A stretch of 64,000 nt of DNA, from NCBI GenBank assembly GCA_964559985.1, contig CAZLJX010000004.1, positions 24,571 through 88,570 of the forward strand, read 5' to 3'. This document shows positions 1-25,185 of this stretch, in pieces. The notes below the pieces were generated by a model, which saw only the letters and a program-made list of their open reading frames with translations, made no database searches and was not told the DNA's origin. How positions within the stretch are numbered: the first letter of the stretch is position 1; each line of letters starts with the position of its first letter. A program made the translations under genes and the position numbers. Origin of the DNA: an uncultured Bacteroidales bacterium. GTDB taxonomy: Bacteria; Bacteroidota; Bacteroidia; Bacteroidales; CAZLJX01.

Positions 1-2007
1 GATAATATCCGGATTTTATCGGCTGCCATGGTCGAAAAAGCCAGATCCGGACATCCCGGCGGGGCTATGGGAGGTGCTGATTTTATACACATTTTGTATT
101 CCGAATTTCTCGATTTCGACCCCAGCGACCCAAAATGGTTTTTACGTGACCGGTTTTTTCTCGATCCCGGGCACATGTCTCCTATGCTGTACTCCATACT
201 TACCCTTTCAGGCCTGATGGATATTGAAAGCCTGAAAAATTTCAGACAGTGGGGAAGCATCACTCCCGGTCACCCCGAACTTGACCTGGAACACGGAATT
301 GAAAATACATCGGGCCCTTTGGGTCAAGGGCATGCCATGGCTGTCGGAGCTGCCATTGCTGAGCGTTTTCTGGCTGCAAGGTTTGGCGATATAGTTGCCC
401 ACAAAACCTATGCTTACATCTCGGATGGCGGAATTCAGGAAGAAATAAGCCAGGGAGCAGGACGCATTGCAGGACACCTGGGTTTATCGGGCCTTATCAT
501 GTTTTACGACTCAAACGACATTCAGCTGTCAACCGAGACCAATGCTGTTACCAGCGAAGATACAGCCTTGAAATACCAGTCATGGGGCTGGAAAGTAATT
601 ACAATAGACGGACACAACCACGACCAGATCAGAAAAGCCCTTTCAGATGCTAAAAACGAAAAGGAAAAACCAACCTTTATAATCGGAAAAACCATGATGG
701 GAAAAGGCGCTGTTACTGCCGACGAAAAAAATTTTGAACGGCAATGCGAAACCCATGGCCAGCCTTTAAGCGCAGCAGGTGCATCGTTCGAAAAAACCAT
801 TGAAAACCTGGGTGGTAACCCCAAAGATCCATTCATTATTTTTGACGAAGTAAAAAAATACTACCAGCAAAAACGTTCCGAAAAAATTGCTGCTGCTGAA
901 AACAGAAAAGCCATTACCAGGGATTGGGCAGCTCAGAATCCTGAAAAAGCCCTGATGCTCGAAGAATTTTTCAGCGGAAAACCTCCCAAAATAGATTATA
1001 CGGCCATTGCACAAAAAAATAACATTGCTACCCGTGTTGCTTCAGCCGTTGTTCTGGGCGAACTTGCAAAAAAAGCCGGGAACATGATAGTTTGCTCCGC
1101 TGATCTTGCCAATAGTGATAAAACAGATGGATTTTTAAAAAATACCCGGCCATTTACCAGAAATGATTTTTCAGGTGCGTTTCTTCATGCCGGTGTTTCT
1201 GAGCTAACCATGGCAGCTTTATGCAATGGAATGGCATTGCATGGAGGTGTTTTTGCAGCCTGTGGCACTTTCTTCGTTTTCAGCGATTACATGAAACCGG
1301 CTGTAAGGCTTTCAGCACTGATGCAACTTCCGGTAAAATATATCTGGACACACGATGCTTTCCGTGTTGGTGAAGACGGCCCTACTCACCAGCCAGTTGA
1401 ACATGAAGCACAAATCAGGCTGATGGAACAACTTAAAAACCATCATGGAAATATGAGCCTGCTGGCACTAAGGCCTGCAGACGCAGCAGAAACAAATATA
1501 GCCTGGGAAATGGCGCTTGAAAACACAAAATCACCCACTGCGCTCATACTTTCCCGCCAGAACATTAATGACCTGCCTGTGACAGGCGACTCTTCACGGA
1601 TAACCGAAGCAATGCAGGCCAGAAAAGGAGCTTATATAGTGGTAAAACATGACCATCCCGACGTGATTCTGATAGCTTCCGGATCAGAAGTGTCAACCCT
1701 CGTAGCTGCTTCCGGGTTATTGAAAAACAAAGGAATTCAATGCCAGGTGGTATCTGTGATCAGCGAAGGCCTTTTCAGGCAGCAACCACCTCAATACCAG
1801 GAAAATATTATACCAACATCGTTGCCAAAATTTGGACTCACTGCCGGATTACCCATTACCTTACGGAATTTATGCGGTGATAACGGCGTGATTCACGGCC
1901 TCGAAAGTTTTGGGTTTTCGGCACCGGCGGGCACACTTGATGATAAATTAGGTTTTATGCCACAAAATGTTGCCGATAAGATAGAAGAAATGCTTAAAAA
2001 GAAATAA
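1..2007 (+). CDS. tkt: Transketolase, 5'-truncated by the window edge
   Basis: The frame is open from base 1 (DNIRILSAAMVEKARSGHPGGAMG...). Motifs GHPGGAMG, YISDGG.QEE and GEDGPTHQPVEH are typical of transketolase TPP and pyrimidine-binding domains. Stop codon at 2005-2007. Confidence 0.95.
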   Translation, partial: DNIRILSAAMVEKARSGHPGGAMGGADFIHILYSEFLDFDPSDPKWFLRDRFFLDPGHMSPMLYSILTLSGLMDIESLKNFRQWGSITPGHPELDLEHGIENTSGPLGQGHAMAVGAAIAERFLAARFGDIVAHKTYAYISDGGIQEEISQGAGRIAGHLGLSGLIMFYDSNDIQLSTETNAVTSEDTALKYQSWGWKVITIDGHNHDQIRKALSDAKNEKEKPTFIIGKTMMGKGAVTADEKNFERQCETHGQPLSAAGASFEKTIENLGGNPKDPFIIFDEVKKYYQQKRSEKIAAAENRKAITRDWAAQNPEKALMLEEFFSGKPPKIDYTAIAQKNNIATRVASAVVLGELAKKAGNMIVCSADLANSDKTDGFLKNTRPFTRNDFSGAFLHAGVSELTMAALCNGMALHGGVFAACGTFFVFSDYMKPAVRLSALMQLPVKYIWTHDAFRVGEDGPTHQPVEHEAQIRLMEQLKNHHGNMSLLALRPADAAETNIAWEMALENTKSPTALILSRQNINDLPVTGDSSRITEAMQARKGAYIVVKHDHPDVILIASGSEVSTLVAASGLLKNKGIQCQVVSVISEGLFRQQPPQYQENIIPTSLPKFGLTAGLPITLRNLCGDNGVIHGLESFGFSAPAGTLDDKLGFMPQNVADKIEEMLKKK

Positions 2008-2032
2008 TCAAGGATAACTTTGCCATTTTTAA

Positions 2033-2040
2033 TATATTTG
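2033..2040 (+). promoter_or_regulatory. Candidate Bacteroidota -7 promoter box TAtaTTTG upstream of the receiver gene
   Basis: Exact match to TAnnTTTG, 27 nt upstream of the ATG at 2067. A second match, TAacTTTG, lies at 2015-2022. No well-spaced -33 TTTG was seen. Confidence 0.3.
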
Positions 2041-2066
2041 TTAACTTAGCAGGATAAAATTGTAAA

Positions 2067-2447
2067 ATGCCGGAATTACCTAAACATCACGTATTACTTG
2101 TCGAAGACGAAGAGTATAATTATTTATATCTAAAAGAAGTAATACTTAAAACAGGTGTCAAAGTAATAAGAGCTGTAAATGGTAACCAGGCCATTGAATT
2201 ATTTAAAAATAACCCTGATATCAGCCTTATTGTTATGGATATCAGGTTGCCCGATATGAACGGTTATAAAGTTACCAAACAAATAAGGGAAATAAACCCC
2301 AATGTACCTATTATTGCTCTAACAGCTTATGCTTTAAAAGGCGACCGCGAAGAAGCACTCCTGTCGGGCTGCACCGATTACATTCCCAAACCTGTTGAAC
2401 CAGCTTTGCTAAAAGAAAAAATAAAACAGTTTTTGCCCGGGCTTTAG
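2067..2447 (+). CDS. Stand-alone response regulator receiver (CheY-like) protein
   Basis: 126 aa. Acidic pocket LLVEDEE, phospho-acceptor VMDIRLPDMNG, ALTA and the conserved Lys in IPKP. Confidence 0.9.
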   Translation: MPELPKHHVLLVEDEEYNYLYLKEVILKTGVKVIRAVNGNQAIELFKNNPDISLIVMDIRLPDMNGYKVTKQIREINPNVPIIALTAYALKGDREEALLSGCTDYIPKPVEPALLKEKIKQFLPGL

Positions 2448-2758
2448 CTAAAAGACTAAAACAACGTCAGAAAAATTTCTTATCCTCAATTAATTTATAA
2501 GAAGGTATTTGTTGTTTATTTTTCAGGTTGACCAGATTAAATGGATACAATGCTGATAAACTACCACCTTTAACCTTAGTACTATTAAAAACATGGTGGT
2601 TTTGTGAAAGGGAAAATGTACTTTTTTTCAGGAAAACTATTATAAAATTTTAATTATAAATTATTTATTTATAATTATTTAGTATTGTTTTTATAAAAAC
2701 ATTTCCGGTTAAATATTATAATAAGATATCTGAAATTATCATTTTAAATAAAAATTAC

Positions 2759-2766
2759 TATTTTTG
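2759..2766 (+). promoter_or_regulatory. Candidate -7 promoter box TAttTTTG for the CheR operon
   Basis: TAnnTTTG match inside a 378-nt very AT-rich spacer, 60 nt upstream of the CheR1 ATG. Confidence 0.3.
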
Positions 2767-2780
2767 AAAGGATGAAGACC

Positions 2781-2811
2781 GGCTGTAAAACCGGGAAAAA
2801 AATTTACAGCC
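2781..2811 (+). promoter_or_regulatory. Perfect 9-bp inverted repeat (hairpin) in the putative 5' leader of the CheR operon
   Basis: GGCTGTAAA (2781-2789) pairs with TTTACAGCC (2803-2811) across a 13-nt A-rich loop. It ends 14 nt before the ATG at 2826, and no strong T-tract follows. Confidence 0.35.
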
Positions 2812-2825
2812 TTATTTAGGATAAT

Positions 2826-3668
2826 ATGTTTACAAACGAAGATCTGAACCGGTTTATTGCAACATTAAAAACTGCATCAAACTATGATTTTTCTGACTAT
2901 TCAGAGAAATCGTTCCGGCGCCGGGTTGAAAAAATTCTTACCGATTATAAATTGGATATCAATTTGTTAATTAGTAAGATTACCAAAGACCAGGTTTTTC
3001 TCGAAAGGGTTGTGAAAGATATTACCGTCAATACCACCGAGCTTTTCAGAGATCCCGAATTGTGGACAACCTTAAAATACAGAATTCTACCGAATTTCAA
3101 AAAAAATAAATCAATATTTATCTGGCATGCCGGCAGTTCAAGCGGACAGGAAATTTATTCGATGCTCATTTTGCTGGCTGAACTGGATTTATTTGAAAAA
3201 GCCAAGGTTTTTGCTACCGATATCAATACCGATATGCTTGAACTGGCCAAAAAAGGGGAATACCGCTACCGGTTTAATCTTAACTACCTTGATAATTTTG
3301 ACAAAGTGCTGAAAGAAAATCCCTATAACTATGAAGATAAAAAGGACGTTGATTACGGAAAATATTTCGATATCGATAAGGTGAAAGACTCCATCACCAT
3401 GAAAAAATTTCTGCGCGATAAAACCATTTTCCGAAAACACGACCTGGTAAACGATAAAAATATTTTCTATTCAAAATTCGATATTATTTTTTGCCGGAAT
3501 GTGATTATCTATTTCAACAATAACCTTCAGAACCGCGTTATAGAAATGTTTTGTAACAACCTTTACCGCGATGGTTACCTGATACTGGGTGCACATGAAA
3601 GCATTCTTGGCCCTATTGCCAACAATTTTGAGCGTACCAAAGGTTTGTATAAGAAAAAATCATTTTAA
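2826..3668 (+). CDS. cheR: CheR-type protein-glutamate O-methyltransferase (canonical motifs)
   Basis: 280 aa. Motifs TELFRD, IWHAGSSSGQEIYS (compare WSAGCSTGEEPYS), VFATDIN, DIIFCRNVIIYF and GYLILGAHES. Confidence 0.9.
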   Translation: MFTNEDLNRFIATLKTASNYDFSDYSEKSFRRRVEKILTDYKLDINLLISKITKDQVFLERVVKDITVNTTELFRDPELWTTLKYRILPNFKKNKSIFIWHAGSSSGQEIYSMLILLAELDLFEKAKVFATDINTDMLELAKKGEYRYRFNLNYLDNFDKVLKENPYNYEDKKDVDYGKYFDIDKVKDSITMKKFLRDKTIFRKHDLVNDKNIFYSKFDIIFCRNVIIYFNNNLQNRVIEMFCNNLYRDGYLILGAHESILGPIANNFERTKGLYKKKSF

Positions 3669-3677
3669 TAAGCAATA

Positions 3678-4505
3678 ATGATGGTTCAGGACATAGGCAT
3701 AGTCGATACGAAAAAAATTATCAGTGTTATCAAAGATATTCACAACTTTGACCTGAGTAATTTTGCCCTGACCACATTTAAACGCAGGGTGTTGAGAATT
3801 ATTCAGGTATTTAATTTCCAGAATGTTACAGTTTTAATTTCCAAGCTCGAAGAAGATAAAAGCTTTTTTGAAAAATTTCTGGATGAATTGCTGATTGAAC
3901 ATACTGAGTTATTTCGTGACCCTTCCCTGTGGCGTATTCTCAGAGATGTGTACATTCCTGAATTAAGACGCAACAGGGATGTGAAAGTCTGGTTTCCGAT
4001 CACCACCTCGGGAGATGAAGTGCATACTTTTACCATTGTTTTAAAAGAATTAGGATTACTTGATGAATTCAGAATTCTGGTAACAGGCTTTTCAGAGCGA
4101 ATCCTTAACCAGGTAAAGGCCGGTGGCCAGTACGATCTGAAAAAAATTGAAGCAAGTGAGGCAAATTATAAAAGGTATTCCGATCGTTTTGAATTATCTG
4201 ACTATTTTACATCAAGCAACAGTAAAGCTGTTTTCGGCAGTGAATTATTGAAAAATACCGAATTTAAAGTCATCGATTCGGTTGAAACAGAACCTCCGGG
4301 TGGTTTCAAACTTGTAATCTGCCGCAATCAGCTTCTCTATTTCAACCAGTCACTGCACGAAATAGTAGTTAAAAACCTGGCTGAATCGTTAATCGGCTCT
4401 GGTTATCTGGTTCTTGGTTCAAAAGAAAATATGGAAGGTTGCTCAGCTTCAAGCCGTTTTATTCTGATAAATCGTGAAGAAAAAATTTATAAAAAAAAGG
4501 CATAA
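3678..4505 (+). CDS. Divergent CheR paralogue with degenerate SAM-binding motifs
   Basis: 275 aa. It keeps TELFRD and ICRNQLLYF, but motif I reads VWFPITTSGDEVHT and the ATDI acidic post-I position reads VTGF. It starts 9 nt after CheR1. Confidence 0.75.
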   Translation: MMVQDIGIVDTKKIISVIKDIHNFDLSNFALTTFKRRVLRIIQVFNFQNVTVLISKLEEDKSFFEKFLDELLIEHTELFRDPSLWRILRDVYIPELRRNRDVKVWFPITTSGDEVHTFTIVLKELGLLDEFRILVTGFSERILNQVKAGGQYDLKKIEASEANYKRYSDRFELSDYFTSSNSKAVFGSELLKNTEFKVIDSVETEPPGGFKLVICRNQLLYFNQSLHEIVVKNLAESLIGSGYLVLGSKENMEGCSASSRFILINREEKIYKKKA

Positions 4506-4508
4506 ATA

Positions 4509-5069
4509 ATGATTAAAGCAATTATCATAGGTGGTTCAGCGGGAAGTTTCCAGGTAGTTACGCGCATTCTATCAGCCCTGCCTGCAGGTTATCCCATTCC
4601 GGTTTTTCTTTGCCTTCACCGGTTAAAACATGTCAGGTCAGGATTTACTGAAGCACTCTCTATAAAAGCCAACCTCCCGATTGTTGAACCCGATGACAAA
4701 GACCCGATCAAACCAGGGAAAATCTATCTTGCTCCGGCTAATTACCATATGTATATTGAGCTTGGCAACAAATTTGCCCTTTCAACCGAAGAGCCGGTAA
4801 ATCATTCGAGGCCATCGATAGATTTATCATTCTTTTCAGCTTCATATTCCTATAAAAACAAATTAATCGGAATAATTCTTTCAGGAGCCAACAAGGATGG
4901 TGCTTTGGGACTGAAAAGCGTCAAAGATTCGGGAGGTATTGCTATTGTTCAGGATCCCAAAGAATGCCAGGTGCCTACCATGACAACTGCATCGCTCAGG
5001 GCTACTAACGTTGATTATATCTTTAAAACCAATGAAATAATAAATTATCTGCTTAAATTGCAATTTTAA
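4509..5069 (+). CDS. cheB: CheB-type protein-glutamate methylesterase, catalytic domain only (no receiver)
   Basis: 186 aa. IIIGGSAGS (Ser nucleophile region), CLHRLKH (His region) and LSGANKDGALG (Asp region). There is no N-terminal REC domain. Confidence 0.85.
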   Translation: MIKAIIIGGSAGSFQVVTRILSALPAGYPIPVFLCLHRLKHVRSGFTEALSIKANLPIVEPDDKDPIKPGKIYLAPANYHMYIELGNKFALSTEEPVNHSRPSIDLSFFSASYSYKNKLIGIILSGANKDGALGLKSVKDSGGIAIVQDPKECQVPTMTTASLRATNVDYIFKTNEIINYLLKLQF

Positions 5070-5071
5070 TA

Positions 5072-5839
5072 ATGGAAACGCTGAGAAACCATAAAGCATT
5101 TATGTATTTTTTATACCTCATTTTTTTTGTGGTTGCAGTATGGCTGTTTTTTAAATTATTGCCTAACCATCAAACCGGTTCAAAGTTTGATAGTATAATG
5201 GTAATTATTCTTTGGTTGGCAGGAACAGCGTTTTTTATCTTTTCATTGTTAAACACTCAACCTGAAAAAGAGATACAGAATATTGATGACAGCCATGAGC
5301 AACTGGAATCAAAGGTTGAAGACATGGTGAAGGAAACCGCCCAGCAATTATCGCAGACACGAAAAATGCAACTGGAAAAAATTTCAAATCATATTTTCAA
5401 TTCACTCAACCATTTGACAAACCGGGAAACATTTGCTGAAAAATTCCTGATTAACCTGGCACGTGAATTCGAACTTGTTCAGGCACTGATATTCTGGAAT
5501 AAACCCGGAGAAGAACTTTACGAAGTATTAGCAACCTATTCATACTACCGCGAAGAAAAACCCGAAGCATTGCACCCGGGCATTGGCCTTTCGGGACAGG
5601 CTATCAAAGATAAGAAAGCAATGTTTGTCAGTGATGTTCCTGAAAAATACGGAAAAATCATTTCGGGTCTGGGAGCTTCAAAACCGCTTTTTTTAGGATT
5701 AATCCCAGCTATCGAAAATGAAACAGTAACTGGGTTGATTGAAGTAGCATCGTTTGTTGATTGGACTGAAGAACAACAATATATTCTGGAAGAACTGACC
5801 AATATAGCAGCAAAAAAAATTGCAGCATTAAATGCATAA
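5072..5839 (+). CDS. Membrane-anchored coiled-coil/GAF-domain protein
   Basis: 255 aa. Two N-terminal hydrophobic helices, a charged helical linker and a C-terminal GAF-like region (GLSGQAIKDKKAMFVSDV...TGLIEVASF). It starts 2 nt after the CheB stop. Confidence 0.7.
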   Translation: METLRNHKAFMYFLYLIFFVVAVWLFFKLLPNHQTGSKFDSIMVIILWLAGTAFFIFSLLNTQPEKEIQNIDDSHEQLESKVEDMVKETAQQLSQTRKMQLEKISNHIFNSLNHLTNRETFAEKFLINLAREFELVQALIFWNKPGEELYEVLATYSYYREEKPEALHPGIGLSGQAIKDKKAMFVSDVPEKYGKIISGLGASKPLFLGLIPAIENETVTGLIEVASFVDWTEEQQYILEELTNIAAKKIAALNA

Positions 5840-5846
5840 ATGAAAT

Positions 5847-8477
5847 ATGGGTTCAAATAAACATATAGATTTTTTTATTCGCAATGTCTTACTTAAAACC
5901 ATTGGAAAAATCCAATTCCCTATTGGCGGTGTATTGTTTGGTTTTCTGTTTATTCTGGCCGGTATTTTAATTGAATATTTCATCAGGGATTATCCTTTCA
6001 CTTTAAATGCCATAGCATTAATGCATGGTCAGAATCCGTTGCTTTATATAATTGATTTTGCACCCATTATTTTAGGCATGGCTAGCGTCTTTTTCAGGAG
6101 AAATTTTTATTTCCGTCTTTCTGAACAGGAAAAACTATTGGCCGAAAAAGAGGAGCTAATCAAGAAAAATGCACTCATTGCCCGTAAAATAGGCGAAGGT
6201 GATTTATCATTCAATAAAGAAGACATTGAAACTGATGACCAGATTGGCAATGCACTCCTGGTAATGCGTGATAATCTATTGACAACCAAGCTGAAAGAAA
6301 ACGAACAAAGCTGGATTGCTGCCGGCAAAGAAAAAATATCAAATATTTTACGACTTCATACAGACCTCAATGTTCTCTCATACGAAACCCTGGTGAACCT
6401 GATAAACTATATTAAAGTTATTCAAGGAGCCTTTTATATTTATGATGAAGAACAGAATATCCTGACCAATATGGCCACCTATGCCTATAACCGGCGCAAA
6501 TATATCAAACAGGAATTCCGCATAGGGCAAGGTCTTATAGGACAGGCAGCCTATGAAATGGGAACCATTTTCCGCCGGCAGATTCCAGAAGATTATATAA
6601 GCATTACTTCAGGAATTCTGGGTGACCAGAAACCTTCAGCCATATTGATAGTACCTTTAATCAGTGATGATAAACTTCAGGGTGCCCTCGAATTTGCCTC
6701 CATCAAAGACGATATTACTCCTTTAAAAATAAAATTTGTCGAAGAACTGAGCGATATCATAGCCCGTACTATTTTTAACCTGAAAGTCAGTGCCAAAACC
6801 ACCAAACTACTTCAGGATGCCCAGAAAATGACTGAAGAACTGAAGGAGAATGAAGAAGAGCTCAGGCAGAATGCAGAAGAAATGAGGGCTACTCACGAGG
6901 AACTTGAAAAATCGAACGTAAAACTTGAACACCAGGTTCTTGAAGTTGAAAATGCGCAGAAAAGGTTACATTCACTGCTCGAAAATGCCTCTGAAATTAT
7001 CTCTATCTACGACGAAAACCTGAAACTTACCTACGAAAGCCCGTCGGTTACCAATATCTTAGGGTACACCCCTGAAGAAATGATGGAAGGAAAAGACTTT
7101 GAACGTCTGTCGACCAAAGGGGAAACCGACATGAAAGAGATGTTCAATGAGCTGATTAAAAATCCCACCGAAACATATACCATCCAATACACTTACATGA
7201 AAAAGGATGGTAAAAAAATATTTATCGAAGCAACCGGACGAAATCTGCTGCATGACCCTGCAATAAACGGAATCATTATTAATTCGCGCGATATCACCGA
7301 ACGGAAAAGAGCCGAAAAAGAGGAGCGTATGAAAAGCAAAATGCAATCGCTCTCCGAAAACTCGCCCGACATGATTATCCGCCTGAGCCCCGCTGGTCAG
7401 TTTTTCTATGCCAACCCGATTGTAAAAATTTTTACCGGGGTCGATACCAACGAGGTAATGAATAAAACCATTGAAGAAGTTAACTTTAACGAACAGATTG
7501 TTACCTTTTTCAAAGATACCATCAAGCAAATAGTCAAGAACCAGACTAAAATCAATATTGAAATTACTTTTCCGACCAATTTCGGAAATCGTATCATGCA
7601 GGTAAATGCCATTCCGGAATTTAACGAAGAAAAAGAACTTGAAAGTGTACTTTTTGTAGCCCACGACATTACAGAGCGTAAAAATATTGAACTTGAAATA
7701 CAGGAAAAAAACAAAAAAATCACCGAAAGCATTAATTATGCCGAACGTATTCAAAGCTCAATACTGCCCGATACAAAATATATACAGGAATTTCTGCCAA
7801 AATCATTTATTTTTTACAAACCCCGCGATGTGGTAAGCGGCGATTTTCCATGGTTTTTCAAAAAAGAAGAAGACATTTACATAGCCGTTGTCGATTGCAC
7901 CGGGCATGGCGTTCCGGGAGCATTACTTTCATTTATAGGCTATTTCCTGCTCAATAATATTGTTGATCATGATTATGACTGGACTGCCGGAGAAGTGCTC
8001 GATCATCTGCATCAGAATGTAAGACGCACTTTGAAACAGGACCGTGCCGATGCCAATGCCCGTGATGGGATGGATATTGCCCTGGTAAAAATAAACCTGC
8101 AAAAAAACAAATTGCAGTATAGTGGTGCACACAGGCCTTTATATCTGCTGCGCAAAAGCGAGCTTACCGAATTTGAAGGCAACCGCAAAGCCATTGGTGG
8201 CATTCCGCATGCAAAAAAACCCGAAAGCAGTTTTGTTAATCATGTGATAGAAATTACCCCTGGCGATAAAGTATTTTTCTTTTCCGATGGCCTTACCGAC
8301 CAGTTGGGCGGACCCGACCGTCAGAAATATTCTCCCCGCCGGATAAGGGAAATAATTATTGAAAATTCAGATTTTTCAATGACACAATTTTCTAATTATT
8401 TTGCAAGAGATTTTAAAAAATGGAAAGGCGACAACAAACAAATTGATGATGTATTGCTTATTGGCATTGAATTTTAA
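5847..8477 (+). CDS. Membrane sensor PP2C (SpoIIE/RsbU-type) serine phosphatase with HAMP-like, GAF and two PAS domains (SiaA-like)
   Basis: 876 aa. N-terminal TM helices, GDLSF...DDQIGNAL..MRDNL (HAMP-like), a GAF domain (GLIGQAAYEMGTIF) and two PAS blocks each ending DIT(E)RK. The PP2C motifs are VSGDFPWF, VDCTGHGVPGALLS, DGMDIALV, FFFSDGLTDQ and DDVLLIGIEF. Confidence 0.9.
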   Translation: MGSNKHIDFFIRNVLLKTIGKIQFPIGGVLFGFLFILAGILIEYFIRDYPFTLNAIALMHGQNPLLYIIDFAPIILGMASVFFRRNFYFRLSEQEKLLAEKEELIKKNALIARKIGEGDLSFNKEDIETDDQIGNALLVMRDNLLTTKLKENEQSWIAAGKEKISNILRLHTDLNVLSYETLVNLINYIKVIQGAFYIYDEEQNILTNMATYAYNRRKYIKQEFRIGQGLIGQAAYEMGTIFRRQIPEDYISITSGILGDQKPSAILIVPLISDDKLQGALEFASIKDDITPLKIKFVEELSDIIARTIFNLKVSAKTTKLLQDAQKMTEELKENEEELRQNAEEMRATHEELEKSNVKLEHQVLEVENAQKRLHSLLENASEIISIYDENLKLTYESPSVTNILGYTPEEMMEGKDFERLSTKGETDMKEMFNELIKNPTETYTIQYTYMKKDGKKIFIEATGRNLLHDPAINGIIINSRDITERKRAEKEERMKSKMQSLSENSPDMIIRLSPAGQFFYANPIVKIFTGVDTNEVMNKTIEEVNFNEQIVTFFKDTIKQIVKNQTKINIEITFPTNFGNRIMQVNAIPEFNEEKELESVLFVAHDITERKNIELEIQEKNKKITESINYAERIQSSILPDTKYIQEFLPKSFIFYKPRDVVSGDFPWFFKKEEDIYIAVVDCTGHGVPGALLSFIGYFLLNNIVDHDYDWTAGEVLDHLHQNVRRTLKQDRADANARDGMDIALVKINLQKNKLQYSGAHRPLYLLRKSELTEFEGNRKAIGGIPHAKKPESSFVNHVIEITPGDKVFFFSDGLTDQLGGPDRQKYSPRRIREIIIENSDFSMTQFSNYFARDFKKWKGDNKQIDDVLLIGIEF

Positions 8478-8510
8478 TATGATGAAAATAATTACTAAAT
8501 AACAGGCACT

Positions 8511-9095
8511 ATGGATGGAAATAACATCGACGTAAAAGGATTCCTCGAATTCGTTTATAGCTTTTATAAAACGATGAAGGATCATGATATCATCCTGGTT
8601 TATGAAGGTGAAGTTACACACCAGATTACCAAGGCTTTTACATCATTAACTGAAACCAATATGGAACAACAGATGGAGGCCAGCTCCACCCAGAAAAAGG
8701 TTTTCCATGTCATGGTTGAAGCCTTGCAGAATATCAGCAAACATGCTGATAATCCGGATGGTAGTGTCAGAAATGACGGCAGAGGGATATTTATGCTGAG
8801 TAAAAACAGTGAAGAATATACCATCACTACAGGAAACGTTTGCGAACGTTCAAAAATTCCACGCATGACAGAAACCCTTGAAAAAATTAACAGCCTTGAC
8901 AAAGAAGGACTTAAAGAGATGTATAAAAGCCAGATAAAGGAAGGAATTATCTCAAACCGGGGTGGTGCGGGACTTGGGTTTATTGATATTGCAAAAAAAA
9001 CCGGTAATAAACTGCATTACTCATTTCTGACCATCAACAATGAATATTCGTTTTTTGTATTAATGACTAAGATATCAAGAAGTAGTAATTTATAA
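8511..9095 (+). CDS. SiaB-like / anti-sigma-factor-type (GHKL ATPase fold) serine-threonine protein kinase
   Basis: 194 aa. N-box-like EALQNISKHA and G-box GGAGLGFIDIAKK. Its size and its position after a PP2C gene and before a DUF1987 gene match the SiaB arrangement. Confidence 0.75.
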   Translation: MDGNNIDVKGFLEFVYSFYKTMKDHDIILVYEGEVTHQITKAFTSLTETNMEQQMEASSTQKKVFHVMVEALQNISKHADNPDGSVRNDGRGIFMLSKNSEEYTITTGNVCERSKIPRMTETLEKINSLDKEGLKEMYKSQIKEGIISNRGGAGLGFIDIAKKTGNKLHYSFLTINNEYSFFVLMTKISRSSNL

Positions 9096-9107
9096 AAACA
9101 TACAATT

Positions 9108-9491
9108 ATGGAAGTAATCAAAATTGTTGGCACCGACGACACTCCCAGTGTAACCCTTGATGCTGATAACGATATTTTCGAAATTAGCGGCAGATCATTG
9201 CCCGAAGACGTCTCGGCATTTTACGAGCCGATTCTCGATTGGCTTGAACGCTATGCAGAAAATACCAATCCGAAAACCATCTTCAATTTTAAACTGGTAT
9301 ATTTCAATACCGCCTCATCAAAAATGCTCCTCGATATTCTGCTGAAACTTGAAGAAATGTATGAAGGTGGCAAAGATGTGCTGGTTAGATGGCATTTCCC
9401 CGAAGATGATGAAGATATGGAAGAAGCAGGACAGGAATATGCTGATATTGTTGAGGTTCCGTTTGAACAGGTAAGCTATTCCATGGACTAA
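9108..9491 (+). CDS. DUF1987 / SiaC-like phosphoprotein (partner-switch substrate)
   Basis: 127 aa. TPSV.LD......EISGRSLPED, YEPILDWL, and the FNTASSKMLLDIL motif containing the Thr that is the phospho-site in the SiaC family. Confidence 0.75.
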   Translation: MEVIKIVGTDDTPSVTLDADNDIFEISGRSLPEDVSAFYEPILDWLERYAENTNPKTIFNFKLVYFNTASSKMLLDILLKLEEMYEGGKDVLVRWHFPEDDEDMEEAGQEYADIVEVPFEQVSYSMD

Positions 9492-9542
9492 CAGATGTCT
9501 TTTTATTGCAAAACCAATTTGCTATTTTAAACCGCTTAATGC

Positions 9543-12500
9543 ATGAGTGAAGAGATTCTAAAAGCGTTGATGCAACTGTTTGCCATCATTGCAAAACAAG
9601 ATGAAGGCGTTGAATCAAACGAAATTGAATATGTCAGTAATTTCCTGAATCAACAGTTAAATGCCGAAGCTGCCCGGGAATATCTTCAACTTTTTTATGA
9701 ACATGCCGGTTTAAAAGAAGGAAAAGAATCTGAAGGAAAAGAAAAAGACGAACCGAAACTTACCTCGGTAAAAGACTCGGTTAGAATTCTGGGTATTTGC
9801 AAAAAAATCAATAAAAAACTTACCCAGGAACAAAAAGTGGTTGTGCTTGTCCGCCTTTGGGAATTGGTGAATACCGACCGAAAATTTTCCGACCAGCGCA
9901 TGGCCATTATTAACACCGCAGCCGAAGTATTTAATATTACTACGGAAGAATTTAAAAGCGTTGAATCTTTTGTCATTAAAGATGATCCTGCTTCACTCGA
10001 CACCAGCAATATACTCATAATAAACGACAAAGAGAAAACCGGCGAGTTATCGAAACACATCCGTACCGAAGCACTCGACGGACTCCTGTTGATTTTACAG
10101 ATAAAAAGCGTTGATCTGTACTTTCTGCGATATACCGGACATGAAGAAATATTTCTGAATGGTTTACCTGTAAATTCAAAGCGTATTTATTTGTTTGCCA
10201 ACGGAAGTGCTATCCGCCTGCCAAAAGGCAAACCCATTTATTACAGCGACGTTGTTGCCCGGTTTATGGCCGATATTACTTCGGCGCATATTTCTTACAA
10301 TGTCAGAAACCTTGAATACCGCTTCCCAAATGGTGCTCTGGGATTGCGAAATATTAACCTTTCTGAAGAACACGGGAAACTTATTGGCATCATGGGTGCC
10401 AGCGGGGCAGGAAAAACTACCCTGCTGAATGTTTTAACCGGTATTGAAAATCCTTCTGCCGGCGAAGTGGTCATTAACAGTATTAACCTTCATACACAAC
10501 ACGATAAAATTGAAGGTGTTATCGGTTACATTCCACAGGACGATCTGCTTATTGAAGAACTTACTGTTTTCGAAAACCTGTATTATAACGCCAAACTTTG
10601 TTTTAAAGATAAAACCGAAGAAGAATTAATTTCGCTGGTCGATAAAACACTGGCCAGTTTGGGCCTGCTTGACCGTAAAATGCTCAAAGTGGGTTCACCC
10701 CTCAATAAAACCATCAGCGGCGGACAACGAAAAAGGCTTAATATTGCCCTTGAACTCATTCGTGAACCATCCATCCTGTTTGTCGATGAGCCTACTTCGG
10801 GGCTTTCGTCACGCGATTCGGAAAATGTAATGGACCTGCTGCGTGAACTTGCACTGAAAGGAAAATTGATTTTTGTTGTCATTCACCAGCCATCGTCCGA
10901 CATTTATAAAATGTTTGACAAAATGATTATTCTCGATACAGGTGGATACCTTATATATTATGGTAACCCCGTTGAAGCGGTAACATTTTTCAAAAAGGCT
11001 GATATGCAGATTAACAGCGATGTTGGCGAATGCCCGACCTGTGGTAGCGTAAATCCGGAACTTATTTTCAATATCATAGATGCACAGGTTGTAGATGAAT
11101 TCGGCCGTTACACCGACAAACGAAAGGTGATGCCCGAACAGTGGGAAAATCTTTATGGCAGTAAGATAAAACCAGAAATTATTGAAGATGCACATGAAGA
11201 ACCTCCACGGTCACTCGATATTCCAAACTGGATAAACCAGTTTAAAATATATACCATCCGCGACTTTGTTTCAAAAATCAGCAACCGGCAGTATATAATT
11301 CTTAACCTGCTCGAAGCACCCGTACTGGGCCTGATATTATCATTCCTTATCCGCTACATTGCCGATCCGAGTTCGAAAATTTATATTTTCAGGGATAACG
11401 AAAACATTCCTCCATATATCTTCATGAGCCTTATTGTTGCCATGTTTCTCGGATTTATGGTGAGTGCCGAAGAAATTTTCCGCGACCGTAAAATCCTTAA
11501 GCGGGAAGCATTTCTCAACCTGAGCCGGTCAAGTTATCTTGTCTCAAAAGTGCTTATTATGCTTATCATTTCTGCCATACAAAGTTTATTCTATGTCATG
11601 GTAGGCAATCTAATATTGGGCATCCACGGCTTGTGGTTCGAATACTGGTGGGCATTGTTTACCATTGCAGCTTTCTCGAATATGCAGGGACTCAATATTT
11701 CATCCGCTTTCAATTCGGCGGTTACCATTTATATTATGATTCCGCTGCTTATGATTCCGCAGATGGCCTTAGGAGGGGCTATGTTCAGTTTCGACAAACT
11801 AAACCGGGTTATCGGCAGCGTTGATAAAGTGCCCATGGTAGCTGAATTTATTGCCACTAGGTGGTCATACGAAGCCCTCATGGTTAGACAGTTCAAAGAC
11901 AATAAATTTGAAAAAAAATATTACGAGCTCGAAAAAGATATCAGTGTGTCTGACTTCAAGCAGGTATATTATTTTGCCGAAATTACCGAACGGCTCGACT
12001 TTGTTAGCCAGAATATTAAAAGCAAAGATCCCGAAATAAAAAAACAGGTACTCATGGACCTGGCACTTTTAAAACATGAACTTGCAAAAGAAAAAAGAAA
12101 AGTGCCCGAAATTCAGTTTAATTTTATTGATTCACTTACCTATGATGTTTTTAATGACTATGTTGCATACAATACCAATGATTATATAGAGAACCTGAAA
12201 TCATACTACAGCCAGAAATTTGAAGCTGCCACCGATAAAAAAGAAACTATCATAGAATACCTTAACGAAAACCGCCCTGGCCTGTATAACAAAACACGAA
12301 ATCATTACCATAATGAAGCCGTCCAGGAAATTGTTACCAATCTTTACGAAAAAAATAAAATCATCCGTTATAAAGAAAAACTGGTACAACAATCCGATCC
12401 CATTTTTCAGGACCCCGAACCGGAAGGATTTTTAAGTTTCAGGGCGCATTTTTATGCACCTAAAAAACATTTTGCCGGAAAATATTTCGATACATTCTGG

Positions 12501-12596
12501 TTTAACCAGGTTATTGTATGGATTATGACCATTTTACTTTATATTGCCCTTTATTATGATGCCCTGAAAAAACTATTAAATTTATCGGGAAAATAA
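9543..12596 (+). CDS. ABCG/ABC-2-type transporter (fused ATPase and permease) with a ~270-aa N-terminal non-transporter extension
   Basis: 1017 aa. Walker A GASGAGKTTLLN, signature SGGQRKRLNIA, Walker B ILFVDEPTSGLS, then a multi-TM ABC-2 region. The N-terminus (LMQLFAIIAKQDEGVESNEIEYV) looks TerB-like by eye, but this is unverified. Confidence 0.85.
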   Translation: MSEEILKALMQLFAIIAKQDEGVESNEIEYVSNFLNQQLNAEAAREYLQLFYEHAGLKEGKESEGKEKDEPKLTSVKDSVRILGICKKINKKLTQEQKVVVLVRLWELVNTDRKFSDQRMAIINTAAEVFNITTEEFKSVESFVIKDDPASLDTSNILIINDKEKTGELSKHIRTEALDGLLLILQIKSVDLYFLRYTGHEEIFLNGLPVNSKRIYLFANGSAIRLPKGKPIYYSDVVARFMADITSAHISYNVRNLEYRFPNGALGLRNINLSEEHGKLIGIMGASGAGKTTLLNVLTGIENPSAGEVVINSINLHTQHDKIEGVIGYIPQDDLLIEELTVFENLYYNAKLCFKDKTEEELISLVDKTLASLGLLDRKMLKVGSPLNKTISGGQRKRLNIALELIREPSILFVDEPTSGLSSRDSENVMDLLRELALKGKLIFVVIHQPSSDIYKMFDKMIILDTGGYLIYYGNPVEAVTFFKKADMQINSDVGECPTCGSVNPELIFNIIDAQVVDEFGRYTDKRKVMPEQWENLYGSKIKPEIIEDAHEEPPRSLDIPNWINQFKIYTIRDFVSKISNRQYIILNLLEAPVLGLILSFLIRYIADPSSKIYIFRDNENIPPYIFMSLIVAMFLGFMVSAEEIFRDRKILKREAFLNLSRSSYLVSKVLIMLIISAIQSLFYVMVGNLILGIHGLWFEYWWALFTIAAFSNMQGLNISSAFNSAVTIYIMIPLLMIPQMALGGAMFSFDKLNRVIGSVDKVPMVAEFIATRWSYEALMVRQFKDNKFEKKYYELEKDISVSDFKQVYYFAEITERLDFVSQNIKSKDPEIKKQVLMDLALLKHELAKEKRKVPEIQFNFIDSLTYDVFNDYVAYNTNDYIENLKSYYSQKFEAATDKKETIIEYLNENRPGLYNKTRNHYHNEAVQEIVTNLYEKNKIIRYKEKLVQQSDPIFQDPEPEGFLSFRAHFYAPKKHFAGKYFDTFWFNQVIVWIMTILLYIALYYDALKKLLNLSGK

Positions 12597-12653
12597 ACGG
12601 GTATTTTTTAATTCAAAAATATTATATACTTTTATGCTATAAAATGAATATCT

Positions 12654-13565
12654 ATGGATAAGCGTTTCATTTATCTTTTTTACAGTCTGCTGTTAATATT
12701 GTCTGCATATTCCTGTAACAATTCAGGCAGTTCTGATTCCGGAGATGTTGATATACCGGATTCCATTTTTGAGAAAAAACCTTTGCTGGTATCGAACGAA
12801 CAGATGGAAAACATCATCCAGAATATTTCGTCACCGGTTGAAATGGCTGCTTTGCTTAAAAATACAGGAGTTCCGTTTCAACGTAAAATTCTGGCATCAA
12901 CAAACAGGATTGATAAATTAAATACAAATTTCAAAAGAGCCCTTAACCTGGGTATTATGGGTGCCGATCTTGGATACCTGAATATGTATGAAAAAACAGG
13001 ATCAGTGATGGAAAACCTTTCATCTATCAAATCTTTATCGGAAGAATTAAAAATAGGGCAGTTTTTTGATTTCAGCACCATCAAGCGGCTTGCTATGAAT
13101 AGCGAAAACCTTGATTCATTGATGTATATTTCTGTTGCCAGTTTCAACAACATGGATGAATACCTGCGTAAGGTAAACCGTACAAACATCAGCTCACTGA
13201 TTGTAACCGGAATATGGATTGAAGGGATGTATCTTTCGACACAGGTGGCCAAAGAAGCACCAAAAAAAGAAATTGTTGAAAGGATAGGCGAACAGAAAAT
13301 CATACTAAACGACCTTTTAATTATTTTAAAAAATTACAGCAGCGACCGCAATTTTTATGAACTGGTACAGGATATTGAAAGAATAAAAAAAGAATACCAG
13401 GAGGTAAAAATTACTTATGAAGTTGGCGAGCCCGAATCAAAAGAGGTTGACGGGATGCTTATCATTGTTCAGAACGAAAAAAGTATTGTAACAATGAATG
13501 ACGAACAGCTCGTCAATATTACCCGCGTTGTTGAAGAAGTTCGTAACAAATTAATCAATATGTAG
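12654..13565 (+). CDS. Hypothetical lipoprotein
   Basis: 303 aa. Signal peptide with lipobox LSAYSC. No recognisable catalytic motif. Confidence 0.6.
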   Translation: MDKRFIYLFYSLLLILSAYSCNNSGSSDSGDVDIPDSIFEKKPLLVSNEQMENIIQNISSPVEMAALLKNTGVPFQRKILASTNRIDKLNTNFKRALNLGIMGADLGYLNMYEKTGSVMENLSSIKSLSEELKIGQFFDFSTIKRLAMNSENLDSLMYISVASFNNMDEYLRKVNRTNISSLIVTGIWIEGMYLSTQVAKEAPKKEIVERIGEQKIILNDLLIILKNYSSDRNFYELVQDIERIKKEYQEVKITYEVGEPESKEVDGMLIIVQNEKSIVTMNDEQLVNITRVVEEVRNKLINM

Positions 13566-13567
13566 TT

Positions 13568-13999
13568 ATGAGGAGTTTTCTACTTTCTATAATAGCCTTG
13601 TTTATAATCGGCACTATTCAGACGCAGGCACAGACCGATGAGTTGGTAAACACCTGTGCCCTGGATATCGGAAACGCTACCTACCTGAAAGATTTTAAAG
13701 TTAAACTTCAGCAAAGTAATGTAAAACCTGCTCCTTCAGCCAAATTTTCGGTGGTGCTTAACAAAGGCACTGTTTATAAAATAAATGTTTGCAATGCCCA
13801 GGGTTACGAAGGCAAAGCTGTTGTAAAGCTTATGGAAAACAATACCCTGCTTGGCACAAACCAGAAAACCGACGGTTCTTTCCTCGATGCATTAGGATTT
13901 GCCTGTCAGAAAACCGGAGTTTACCAGATACAGATTTCTTTTGATGATGGAAAAGAGGGAGCGGCTGTAGCTATTCTCTCATTCATTAATAAAAGCTAA
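13568..13999 (+). CDS. Hypothetical secreted protein
   Basis: 143 aa. N-terminal signal peptide (LFIIGTIQTQAQT). It starts 2 nt after the previous stop. Confidence 0.55.
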   Translation: MRSFLLSIIALFIIGTIQTQAQTDELVNTCALDIGNATYLKDFKVKLQQSNVKPAPSAKFSVVLNKGTVYKINVCNAQGYEGKAVVKLMENNTLLGTNQKTDGSFLDALGFACQKTGVYQIQISFDDGKEGAAVAILSFINKS

Positions 14000-14015
14000 A
14001 CAGATATTATATCTG

Positions 14016-14053
14016 AAAAAGAGGCTGCATTTTCAAAATGTGGCCTTTTTTTT
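14016..14053. terminator. Bidirectional rho-independent terminator between convergent genes
   Basis: A-run, then the stem AGGCTGCAT (14022-14030) / ATGTGGCCT (14038-14046; 9 bp including two G-T wobbles), a 7-nt loop and a T7 run. Confidence 0.55.
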
Positions 14054-15029
14054 ATGCAGGAAAAATCAGGTAAACATAACGGATTACCACCAGGCTTAGA
14101 ATAAATAATATAAACAAAAAATTTGCCCATCTGCCCGGCCTGATCGTACAAAATAAATATCCGACCAAAAATGATGAAGGTAAATTAAACAGATAGATAT
14201 ATCCGGCACTATAACCCGGAAGGAAATAATTGAGTAAAAATAAATATATGACCAGGAATATGAAAAGCCTGAAATATTTGCTGGTGACTATTTTCCTGAC
14301 ATTTTGCCTGTACAGTGAAAAAAGCATTGCCCCTGTCAATATGGCTGAAGGAAAAATTAAAACATACCATCCGGGCGATACAGCCGGGTAATAATTGTCA
14401 TTGCCATTGATCAGCTGTAAAAAAACAGAATAATCGAAAGGGATATCGAAAGTGAAAAAGACAGTAGCCAGAAAAATAAGAGGGACAAAAAAACCTAAAA
14501 AACCCGTTATCCATTCACGCCAGTTGAAAGGACGTAATACAATAATGATCAGTAAAAAAAACGGATAAATAAAAATTAACCCGGGATAGATGATAAATGC
14601 TAAAAAAAATAAAAAACTCCCTTCAAAATAATTGCCGATATACAGGCCGCCTTTATCGCTCACAAAGTACCGGTCAATGGCAAATAAGATGAAAAAATTA
14701 GCAATCAGTGCATTATTCAATCCGGATAGAAAATAAAAAATACTGCTGAAAAGGACATATAAAAATGATGGTAAATAAGTAGCTCCTTCAATAAAAATGT
14801 ACTTGTAGTTTAACCGGCTCAGATAAAATGCCTGGGTTATTATTAATAACGATCCAACAATGGCCGATAAAATACCATAACGCGTTGTAAATGAAACAAA
14901 AGTATCATTAAAAAAAAGCATCAATGGTTGATAGCTGCTTTCTGATAACGGAAAAGCCAGACCTATGCCCGATAAAACCATTACAAACAAAACAAGGATG
15001 CTGTCACTTCTGAAAAAACGTAGTATCAT
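14052..15029 (-). CDS. Polytopic membrane protein of unknown function
   Basis: About 325 aa and highly hydrophobic. I place the start at the ATG at 15029 (MILRFFRSD), 4 nt after the purD stop, rather than the track start at 15143, which overlaps purD by 110 nt. Confidence 0.65.
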   Translation of the reverse strand: MILRFFRSDSILVLFVMVLSGIGLAFPLSESSYQPLMLFFNDTFVSFTTRYGILSAIVGSLLIITQAFYLSRLNYKYIFIEGATYLPSFLYVLFSSIFYFLSGLNNALIANFFILFAIDRYFVSDKGGLYIGNYFEGSFLFFLAFIIYPGLIFIYPFFLLIIIVLRPFNWREWITGFLGFFVPLIFLATVFFTFDIPFDYSVFLQLINGNDNYYPAVSPGWYVLIFPSAILTGAMLFSLYRQNVRKIVTSKYFRLFIFLVIYLFLLNYFLPGYSAGYIYLFNLPSSFLVGYLFCTIRPGRWANFLFILFILSLVVIRYVYLIFPA

Positions 15030-20600: not shown

Positions 20601-20634
20601 ACAGGTTATTACACGTAAAGTGTTTGTAAAATAA
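17611..20634 (+). CDS. Large secreted protein with a T9SS C-terminal sorting domain
   Basis: 1007 aa. Signal peptide, a central region resembling the choice-of-anchor J / MAM-like module (DWLILPQVNL...WDVDEVLI), and a C-terminus KIMVYDLTGKLV...GYYMVKVATSQQVITRKVFVK typical of Por/T9SS tails. Confidence 0.85.
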   Translation: MQMRKVLYLLILAINWLDLFPQSATVTLRPQYIDLSSATAQSGVLMTLSSYSSNDAKYRLYNGANQYNCWDGTQYVTSTAYASGPSVPGTPTTSTTFWILFQRGANNATAASYRDRLGPAYSSNYQTVALSAATSITTPFTLSGNVTAGGGNNLDVKYAVLGWSTTNLITVTSTDLTTGSFSLVAPDGTTIDKIEIRKTNNTSITEKTGSWTSTGSVGNISLGSVSDPEPTNHVENLDVIMPNPGTMTVSYTENDGAQPPHGYLIIVNTLPITPPTDGVPQSNDNDLSSTGGVMNVSHGVVSVNFYNPLPGQTYNVTVYPYTNTGVSIDYKTGGDVPEIQFEAPAFTVAKYFDDNTQGNAIVKDEEGAQSWGFSSGFARMNGYSGASIPNTDWLILPQVNLSATSYLTFITRWHFGSLDADDYLKLMYSQDYDGTGAPSGFTWNEVSFNIGADNAWTNSGPIKIPVTGNTYIAFKYKSNDGARQWDVDEVLIASQVVFTGASSNDMSDPANWTGGVFPETFSVVKIENTLGVISGTLECQHMMIEPAGKLTVNGGGTLTVNGELYIKANGTGRGSFIPLGTATYSTGTVEIFFENMLQNYHFSIPVTTAKASVMGDLNVNFLYEYNTAGSSWSRITDGNADLVAGKGYVYKNTSGSYTAKFTGTIANGTINPPVLSNTGNNWWLVGNSYPSAIDLGCGDTPIGGWVMTDLRPTFYTRTNGAVVTYNWTGPGGGVNGGSRYFANNHAIWIKVTGASPAFTMANTVRVHNDVTFLKASEIMPVLRLSAVNGDFSDETLIRFHSNSLTGLDDYDSEKMLTEDTRYAEIYTISENSKLAINTYPETGDRLEIPVGFRCKADGQYTIKVSEMANFPADVTILLADNQLNKIVDLNITQSYAFFSTVTDNSSRFTLYFIKGLVPDDLSGDNGIAAGMGENNQNKIKIYGYNNQILVSTPETSGKIMVYDLTGKLVTDVTMNGNNYSINVENKGYYMVKVATSQQVITRKVFVK

Positions 20635-24288: not shown

Positions 24289-24344
24289 GTTTTTAGCCGG
24301 CAATTTTATATCTTGTACCATGCTTTTCAGCCAAAATATTGACT

Positions 24345-25061: not shown

Positions 25062-25185
25062 AACCTGTCATTAATTACTATCATTTTTACCGATTTTTTA
25101 TTAATTTTCAAAAAAATAAATAATGACATCCTTAGGGGAAAAAAATCGTTATTTATTTGATCCTTAAAAGGTTCATCTGTAAAAA

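Follow-up and report, generated by a model that had tools for sequence, protein, structure and literature searches.

A gene cluster in a 64,000-nucleotide stretch of DNA from an uncultured Bacteroidales bacterium (contig CAZLJX010000004.1 of assembly GCA_964559985.1, positions 24,571 to 88,570; the whole stretch is hereafter called the window) combines genes for signalling and export and is conserved in Bacteroidales and Cytophagales. It encodes CheR and CheB enzymes, a partner switch of the SiaABC type and an ABCG-type exporter that is followed by two exported proteins. We tentatively favour, with a confidence that stops a little short of even, a composite model in which the SiaABC-like switch has the exporter as its output, and CheR and CheB provide adaptation via a coiled coil of the sensor phosphatase. 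The partner-switch part of this model stands on far firmer ground than methylation or output. Many genomes encode CheR and CheB outside Che pathways, CheB/CheR fusion kinases being one example. To our knowledge, the only established substrates of these enzymes are receptors of the methyl-accepting chemotaxis protein (MCP) type.

Architecture and conservation of the locus

Seven plus-strand open reading frames (ORFs) occupy positions 2826-9491 of the window, separated by gaps of 9, 3, 2, 7, 33 and 12 nt. A preliminary description, made from the letters of the sequence, presented them as a seven-gene unit in a Bacteroidota host. Domains were called with Pfam and NCBIfam models on the window proteins, and transmembrane segments with a hydropathy scan; by these models, all seven of its domain assignments are correct. 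All seven ORFs are likewise real and tightly spaced. The conserved unit, however, extends to about 13999 and is larger than seven genes, since genes for a TerB-ABCG exporter, a lipoprotein (g303) and a secreted protein (g143) follow SiaC in related loci. It comprises nine core genes plus accessories and ends near 13999, where a convergent gene starts. The host assignment holds as well: the nearest relatives are Salinivirgaceae and other Bacteroidales metagenome-assembled genomes (MAGs), and the same contig carries a gene for the lipoprotein GldD a short way upstream. The features of the unit are as follows.

2826..3668, + strand: CheR1, canonical CheR methyltransferase, 280 residues (Pfam CheR, 8.4e-39)
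3678..4505, + strand: CheR2, cluster-specific CheR, 275 residues (Pfam CheR, 2.3e-20)
4509..5069, + strand: CheB methylesterase/deamidase catalytic domain, 186 residues (CheB_methylest, 1.5e-47, residues 5-180)
5072..5839, + strand: TM-GAF, small membrane protein, 255 residues (GAF_2, 1.9e-7; transmembrane segments 9-27 and 42-60)
5847..8477, + strand: sensor phosphatase, 876 residues (SpoIIE, 2.4e-21, two PAS domains and GAF_2; transmembrane segments 24-42 and 65-83)
6852..6905, + strand: post-GAF coiled coil EEELRQNAEEMRATHEEL, sensor residues 336-353, candidate methyl-acceptor segment
8511..9095, + strand: SiaB-family (GHKL-type) Ser/Thr kinase (NF038262, 169.9 bits against a cut-off of 85; Pfam DUF6272, 5.7e-41)
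9108..9491, + strand: SiaC (DUF1987) phosphoprotein (Pfam SiaC, 1.8e-41, 141 bits against 24.5)
9543..12596, + strand: TerB-domain ABCG-type half transporter, 1017 residues (TerB, 1e-8; ABC_tran, 4.9e-31; ABC2_membrane, 5.4e-19)
12654..13565, + strand: lipoprotein g303, 303 residues (no Pfam match; Cys21 invariant behind a hydrophobic leader)
13568..13999, + strand: small secreted protein g143, 143 residues (no Pfam match; N-terminal signal-like hydrophobic segment)

The cluster recurs widely. A search with CheR2 returned about 125 protein clusters, mainly from Bacteroidales, Salinivirgaceae and 'Bacteroidetes' MAGs. An alignment of CheR2 proteins was scanned against one genome per species, which gave 80 loci, and the ORFs called in these loci were compared with the window proteins. 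The Bacteroidales among them include Salinivirgaceae, MAGs labelled Rikenellaceae, and Paludibacter; the Cytophagales include Cyclobacteriaceae, Marivirga, Flexithrix, Fulvivirga, Ohtaekwangia, Chryseolinea, Flammeovirga, Bernardetia, Algivirga and Microscilla. CheB directly follows CheR2 in 72 of the 75 loci with room for it, and the order CheR2-CheB-TMGAF-PP2C-SiaB-SiaC is found in 58 of 61 loci from different species with at least 7 kb of downstream flank. Recurrence on this scale in different species means that the arrangement is not due to chance, and it extends to both orders the linkage between CheR-CheB and PP2C, SiaB and SiaC that the preliminary description had drawn from the window. 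A TerB-ABCG gene follows SiaC in 51 of the 54 loci with at least 9.5 kb of flank, and both g303 and g143 are present wherever the flank extends far enough. The syntenic loci span the two orders at a CheR2 identity of 35-50%. Further, a reverse start from g303 leads to homologues at 56-65% identity that terminate complete clusters. The distribution as a whole takes in at least 80 genomes, each of a different species, and metagenome proteins by the thousand.

The exceptions bear on whether the cluster could be two independent neighbours, namely a CheR/CheB/TM-GAF module and a SiaABC-like switch controlling the exporter. Halves of the cluster are mutually inverted in L017 and L054. L083 has the first half only, its CheR1-CheR2-CheB-TMGAF being followed by unrelated genes, and the second half occurs with CheR2 only in L080 and L084, which combine CheR2 with a sensor-less PP2C and have neither CheB nor TM-GAF. 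Two other loci are reduced to CheR2 alone (L060) and to CheR2-CheB (L029). We nevertheless consider independence of the halves very unlikely: they stay adjacent even when inverted, they co-occur in the 58 of 61 loci, and the same GAF subtype recurs in TM-GAF, in the sensor and in the extra receptors of related clusters.

Another possibility is that CheR and CheB serve conventional MCPs encoded elsewhere, and that they neighbour the SiaABC-like genes by co-regulation or accident. Some Bacteroidota do possess MCPs (PMC7390727). In one related MAG (L082, 37-5826), a set of MCP, CheR, HATPase, CheD, an unknown gene and a CheB with receiver lies directly upstream of the CheR2 cluster, and MCP genes lie within a few kb in L083 and in L136, the latter from a set of metagenome loci. 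The flanks of about 160 loci, 2.09 Mb in total, contain no MCP ORFs other than these three, and MCP signalling-domain receptors, CheA and CheW are absent from 77 of the 80 CheR2-anchored genome loci. The window itself was earlier described as free of MCP, CheA and CheW, and Pfam scans agree: its ORFs of at least 150 residues contain neither MCPsignal, CheW or CheA domains nor flagellar ones. Moreover, the genes are linked in 58 of 61 loci from both orders and lie only a few nucleotides apart, which speaks against an accidental neighbourhood; the CheB of the cluster lacks the receiver that would couple it to CheA, and L082 has a separate CheR and receiver-CheB for its own MCP. Service to MCPs encoded elsewhere is, in our judgement, improbable.

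Partner switch, exporter and CheR/CheB enzymes

The sensor phosphatase is arranged as two transmembrane segments, a HAMP-like segment, GAF, coiled coil, PAS, PAS and PP2C. The NCBIfam SiaA model recognises only its C-terminal part (residues 609-874, 2.3e-50) and gives 171.8 bits there against an equivalog cut-off of 700; Pfam SpoIIE scores 77 bits against a cut-off of 25. We accordingly describe the protein as SiaA-like in sequence, and not as a SiaA equivalog. The PP2C metal-site motifs DCTGHG, SD and DD are invariant in 61 of 61 sensors. The segment that the preliminary description called HAMP-like has no Pfam HAMP match in the window protein, and the name finds support in a weak HAMP match in longer orthologues. 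Cytophagales PP2C sensors additionally have a dCache domain and HAMP. A HisKA_3 match on the sensor coil is sub-threshold (17.5 bits against a cut-off of 24).

The kinase aligns with the SiaB chain of 6KKO at 2.4e-13, and scores below the cut-off of the strict kinase_SiaB equivalog model (79.8 bits against 225). Indeed, the window proteins miss the equivalog cut-offs for SiaA, SiaB and SiaC alike. An alignment of SiaC with P. aeruginosa SiaC (6KKO/7E6G), at 2.5e-18, places T68 opposite the Thr of LNTSS, which we take to be the phospho-site. The Thr68 codon is at 9309-9311, within FNTASS, where the preliminary description had placed the phosphorylation motif; T68 is invariant in 64 of 64 orthologues, and YFNTASS is invariant or nearly so. 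At the level of sequence, then, the window has a SiaA-like PP2C, a SiaB-family kinase and a SiaC with its putative acceptor Thr. Duplications of the switch genes occur in related loci. L061 has an additional SiaB-like (374 residues) and SiaC pair upstream of CheR1 (1536-3040), besides the regular SiaB-SiaC, and the L082 MAG has two SiaB paralogues.

In the exporter, ABC_tran (268-419) precedes ABC2_membrane (566-756), so that the nucleotide-binding domain (NBD) stands before the transmembrane domain (TMD). This placement of the NBD N-terminal to the ABC-2 membrane domain is the ABCG trait. The protein matches TIGR00955 at 3.2e-76, and its longest solved match is ABCG1, over residues 241-754. 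Behind it, g143 starts 2 nt past g303, and the two co-occur in related loci. The g303 family has more than 6000 members. An AlphaFold2 model of g303 (mean pLDDT 76) consists of a helical domain and a small sheet, and a search with this model found no PDB match with E below 0.9. The exporter is most likely the output of the switch, an assignment that we draw solely from gene order.

The two CheR proteins have diverged in a complementary manner. CheR1 has canonical motifs at its S-adenosylmethionine (SAM) site, namely IWHAGSSSGQE, ATDI and CRNVIIYF in an alignment to B. subtilis CheR (5FTW), and is predicted on these motifs to be an active CheR as in Che pathways. It occurs in 29 of the 80 related loci, in Bacteroidales-type clusters only. 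Both families were aligned to 5FTW and scored at positions 100, 101, 102 and 130, which are presumably SAM-site positions, 130 being the Asp of the ATDI motif. At these positions 5FTW itself reads A-A-C-D and the window CheR2 reads P-I-T-G. The preliminary description regarded CheR2 as degenerate. This is so in the window, and in all 29 loci with CheR1 (P-E-V-S, P-G-V-S, A-G-E-C and similar), but CheR2 is canonical wherever CheR1 is absent (50 of 50 scored loci, with A-G-C-D in 49 and A-A-C-D in 1). The TELFRDP motif of CheR2 is invariant.

From this distribution we take CheR2 to be the ancestral, universal methyltransferase of the cluster. In Bacteroidales-type clusters, that of the window among them, a second CheR was acquired. 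There CheR2 has lost cofactor-site residues yet has been retained, which indicates a non-catalytic role, and the window CheR2 is probably a pseudoenzyme or adaptor. We hypothesise that methyltransferase activity resides with CheR2 in Cytophagales and with CheR1 in Bacteroidales. Because the degeneration of the two is complementary, one active CheR would always be kept, and this argues that methylation matters to the system. The pairing of CheR1 and CheR2 also represents a clean natural example of pseudoenzyme origin.

CheB has no receiver, as judged by the absence of a Pfam Response_reg domain. Its triad of S10, H37 and D130 aligns with GASTGG, QHM and DDG of receiver-containing CheB, and is invariant in 77 of 77 sequences. 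Of the triad and phosphorylatable receiver that characterise CheB in Che pathways, it thus has the former and lacks the latter. The neighbouring TM-GAF protein stays with CheR/CheB in the split clusters (L017, L054 and L083). Its conservation is confined to the GAF domain, with no conserved EE pair outside. We speculate that TM-GAF may tether or present CheR/CheB at the membrane, possibly as an adaptor.

Candidate methyl acceptors and a proposed mechanism

Two acceptors had been suggested for the methyl groups: the coiled coil of the PP2C sensor and the small GAF protein. Our comparison points to the former, which carries near-invariant, Tsr-like EE-x-x-A-T heptads. TM-GAF is an unlikely acceptor, having no conserved Glu pair and only its GAF domain conserved. 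An alignment of 61 PP2C orthologues gives the coil consensus LRQNAEEMxATQEELxxxN, with EE pairs spaced every seven residues and a central heptad of E-E-x-x-A-[S/T]. In the window sensor, NAEEMRAT at residues 342-349 fits E-[EQ]-x-x-A-[ST], which is a motif match only and not homology. The helix of E. coli Tsr (PDB 6S1K) reads EQQAAS / EETAAS / EQLTAT, the same heptad pattern as the coil, and these heptads we take to be methylation sites.

The pattern is concentrated in the expected proteins. The coil is the sensor's fourth most conserved 18-residue stretch, at 0.86. EE..A[ST] is found in 51 of 61 sensors and 25 of 33 upstream receptors, as against 7 of 569 other ORFs. It is present in 2 of 60 TM-GAF, 0 of 63 SiaB and 2 of 59 ABC exporter proteins and is essentially absent from CheB and g303; SiaC, with orthologues of fewer than 150 residues, was left out of these counts. 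The orthologues counted do not represent independent samples. Among 4808 ORFs, a two-heptad version of the pattern matches only these sensors and one genuine MCP (L082), and within the window it matches the PP2C gene only.

CheR and CheB might instead act in the system on another target, such as TM-GAF, the HAMP-to-GAF helix, SiaB, SiaC or the TerB region of the exporter, leaving the coil as a signalling helix only. Several observations lean this way. TM-GAF always accompanies CheR/CheB in the split clusters L017, L054 and L083, the coil motif is widespread without linked CheR/CheB, other sensor linkers are equally conserved, and L080 and L084 retain CheR2 beside a PP2C without the sensor coil. 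On the other hand, TM-GAF has no conserved Glu/Gln pair outside GAF, the motif is rare or missing in TM-GAF, SiaB and the exporter by the counts above (in which SiaC does not figure), and the coil is the only MCP-like acceptor pattern in the cluster. We judge a different target within the system to be unlikely.

Additional receptors broaden the case for the coil. In about half of Cytophagales clusters, a receptor gene encoding 450-900 residues lies directly upstream of CheR2, and several Bacteroidales clusters have a receptor gene between CheR1 and CheR2. These receptors consist of a periplasmic PilJ or Cache domain, a transmembrane segment, HAMP and GAF, with or without two PAS domains, and have no output domain. 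Their predicted layout is MCP-like, with the GAF-coil replacing the MCP signalling domain. Of the 27 full-length cluster-encoded receptors listed, 26 share the sequence AQEEEMRQNMEELxATQEE. A phmmer search with a 62-residue coil against 1.84 billion representatives returned 247 proteins, nearly all of which have the same GAF subtype followed by one to six motif copies, usually without an output; a few are kinases. HAMP-GAF-coil receptors are often in tandem, with three paralogues in one assembly. Tandem arrays of three or four such receptors, with no CheR/CheB nearby, occur in L090, L106, L125 and L136, and in L136 a 4HB-HAMP MCP adjoins the array. One protein of 925 residues (P0254) has TM-HAMP-GAF followed by six near-identical repeats of about 100 residues, each with (S/A)QEEEMRQN(M/L)EELQATQE. 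It is a receptor-like protein made up nearly throughout of candidate acceptor coil. Scattered receptors of this kind resemble MCP genes around one che operon, and are equally compatible with a generic signalling helix.

Other gene arrangements favour a link between CheR/CheB and the coil. Pairs of a receptor with CheB or with CheR lie outside the full cluster in L088, L091, L096, L128 and L148. In L080 (203-5630, minus strand), a CheR adjoins a 1154-residue TM-GAF-EEL-coil hybrid histidine kinase on the opposite strand to the reduced cluster, which consists of CheR2 and a 276-residue PP2C. In L168, a gene of the CheB/CheR fusion type has a heptad coil (EELKSAN EELQSMN EELQSTN...) and PAS_10 directly after CheB-CheR; this locus was found through a search with a consensus sequence, which matched 2467 proteins with the JGI name 'CheB/CheR fusion protein'. 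We favour the link on the strength of L168, the hybrid kinase neighbour in L080 and the receptor-CheB and receptor-CheR pairs. No fusion of CheR or CheB to coil-bearing proteins occurs among the 150 best library matches or the 80 genome loci.

Several points weigh against coil methylation. An alignment of the GAF-coil led to 80 metagenome loci of which only about 10 have CheR/CheB within 8 kb, and adjacency is therefore unusable as proof; HAMP-GAF receptors and PAS kinases that carry the coil without such neighbours are common. The coil has no detectable homology to MCP helices, phmmer against PDB returning generic coiled coils at E of 0.29 or above. High conservation extends to every inter-domain helix of the sensor and is greater in the PAS1-PAS2 linker than in the coil, so that conservation alone cannot single the coil out. 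Some orthologues (L037, L065 and L079) have lost the EE pairs yet keep CheR2 and CheB, and L080 and L084 keep CheR2 though their PP2C is without the sensor region and CheB is absent. To these may be added the MCP genes near L082, L083 and L136, and the gene-order basis of the SiaC-exporter link. Methylation, its sites and its effect are all inferred. Coil methylation is the best hypothesis that we can offer, and the coil a candidate acceptor.

In the composite model, the sensor phosphatase would dephosphorylate, and the SiaB-like kinase phosphorylate, Thr68 of SiaC, by homology to P. aeruginosa SiaABC. Unphosphorylated SiaC would, by the same homology, bind and regulate a partner protein. Gene order suggests that this partner is the TerB-ABCG exporter, with its TerB domain in the cytoplasm, and the exporter would work with lipoprotein g303 and secreted g143. 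CheR would methylate Glu/Gln pairs in the post-GAF coil of the sensor (...LRQNAEEMxATQEEL...), and the receiver-less CheB would demethylate or deamidate them. Paralogous output-less Cache/PilJ-HAMP-GAF-coil receptors may be modified likewise. Methylation would then reset the set-point of the phosphatase, as MCP methylation resets CheA, and so provide adaptation. Given that CheB is without a receiver, feedback would have to arise from substrate conformation.

We also entertain a bolder version of this model, though we hold it to be doubtful. Here, the genome-scattered output-less receptors would be the true methyl acceptors of a chemosensory-like pathway of Bacteroidales and Cytophagales without MCP, CheA, CheW or CheY. 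One CheR/CheB set would adapt them in trans, and they would signal via the paralogous sensor PP2C and SiaB/SiaC to the ABCG exporter. If true, this would make them a second, independent class of CheR/CheB receptor, and would also explain the uncharacterised CheB/CheR-fusion kinases.

The surroundings of the cluster were surveyed as well. One further signalling gene lies 380 nt upstream of CheR1:

2067-2447, + strand: stand-alone receiver-domain (REC) response regulator

It was rejected as a member of the unit and is probably unrelated, because no counterpart adjoins the cluster in the 80 related loci. Counts from a promoter and terminator scan of 2000-14400 equal the shuffled expectation, and Rfam and tRNA scans of the window gave no matches. 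Beyond the cluster, an S24-peptidase-like fragment, an ABC_membrane/ABC_tran exporter, a LytTR response regulator and a 1323-residue Reg_prop/Y_Y_Y/PAS/HisKA kinase follow one another at 22053-29157 (+). A long co-directional polysaccharide/capsule biosynthesis locus occupies 30613-61332 (+). Its genes encode a flippase, GT2 and GT4 glycosyltransferases, PGA_cap, ATP-grasp ligases, a DegT aminotransferase, an asparagine synthase, a FemAB-like protein and a methyltransferase, and an AbiEii-like fragment lies inside it at 40032-40661. ORFs of 1007, 609 and 822 residues at 17611-20634 (+), 52968-54797 (+) and 61338-63806 (-) have no Pfam match at E of 1e-5 or below.

Significance and comparison with known systems

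The locus represents a tractable case for a role of CheR and CheB outside MCP pathways. Its enzymes are separate and small, the candidate acceptor segment is short, with two or three Glu pairs, and phospho-Thr on SiaC provides a read-out. Cultured hosts include Marivirga, Flexithrix, Ohtaekwangia, Chryseolinea, Flammeovirga and Bernardetia. If the composite model is true, a Ser/Thr partner switch can be combined with adaptation through methylation, and SiaABC-type switches can control transporters besides cyclic di-GMP synthesis. The large family of 'output-less' HAMP-GAF proteins would then be the receptors of a new pathway.

The nearest described relative of the switch is SiaABCD, a partner-switch system of Pseudomonas aeruginosa (PMC8457831; bioRxiv 10.1101/674879). 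Both systems encode, in identical gene order, a PP2C whose N-terminal part is a membrane/sensor region, a kinase of the SiaB family and a SiaC with the conserved Thr. Unlike SiaABCD, the window cluster has no SiaD diguanylate cyclase, Pfam finding no GGDEF domain in the cluster genes or in window ORFs of at least 150 residues; the TerB-ABCG exporter and two exported proteins come after SiaC instead. It also encodes CheR, CheB and TM-GAF upstream, and its sensor differs from SiaA in having GAF-coil-PAS-PAS in the sensor part.

Chemosensory pathways with CheR/CheB adaptation and outputs other than the E. coli Tar/Tsr type include Wsp and Frz. The locus shares with Che adaptation modules the SAM motifs of CheR and the Ser-His-Asp triad of CheB, as well as membrane receptors with periplasmic Cache/PilJ, HAMP and a coil with EE-x-x-A-S/T heptads. 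It departs from Che pathways in having no MCP signalling domain, CheA, CheW or CheY, and in its receiver-less CheB. The presumed acceptor helix follows GAF and has no detectable MCP-helix homology, in contrast to that of MCPs, and the downstream chemistry would be Ser/Thr phosphorylation of a STAS-like protein.

CheB/CheR fusion PAS kinases (K13924-type) offer a further parallel, with CheB and CheR outside classical Che and an EEL-heptad coil plus PAS, as in L168. In these kinases, one polypeptide combines both enzymes with the sensor, and a histidine kinase with PAS_10 serves as output. The window genes, by contrast, are separate, and the sensor has GAF and a PP2C output; no PAS_10 or HATPase_c domain is present in the cluster, and no fused CheB-CheR ORF in the 80 genome loci. 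A literature search on the function of CheB/CheR fusions gave annotation-level mentions only, and no functional study. Likewise, a full-text search, with subscription journals mostly outside its coverage, found no literature on CheR/CheB linked to a SiaABC-type switch.

Finally, the exporter resembles ABCG1 (White-type) in its NBD-then-TMD order and its ABC-2 type membrane domain. It differs from ABCG1 in its N-terminal TerB region (about 240 residues), in a C-terminal extension that adds about 260 residues and one transmembrane segment, and in being bacterial and linked to a partner switch. All parts of the locus come from known families, and it is their combination that matches no described system.

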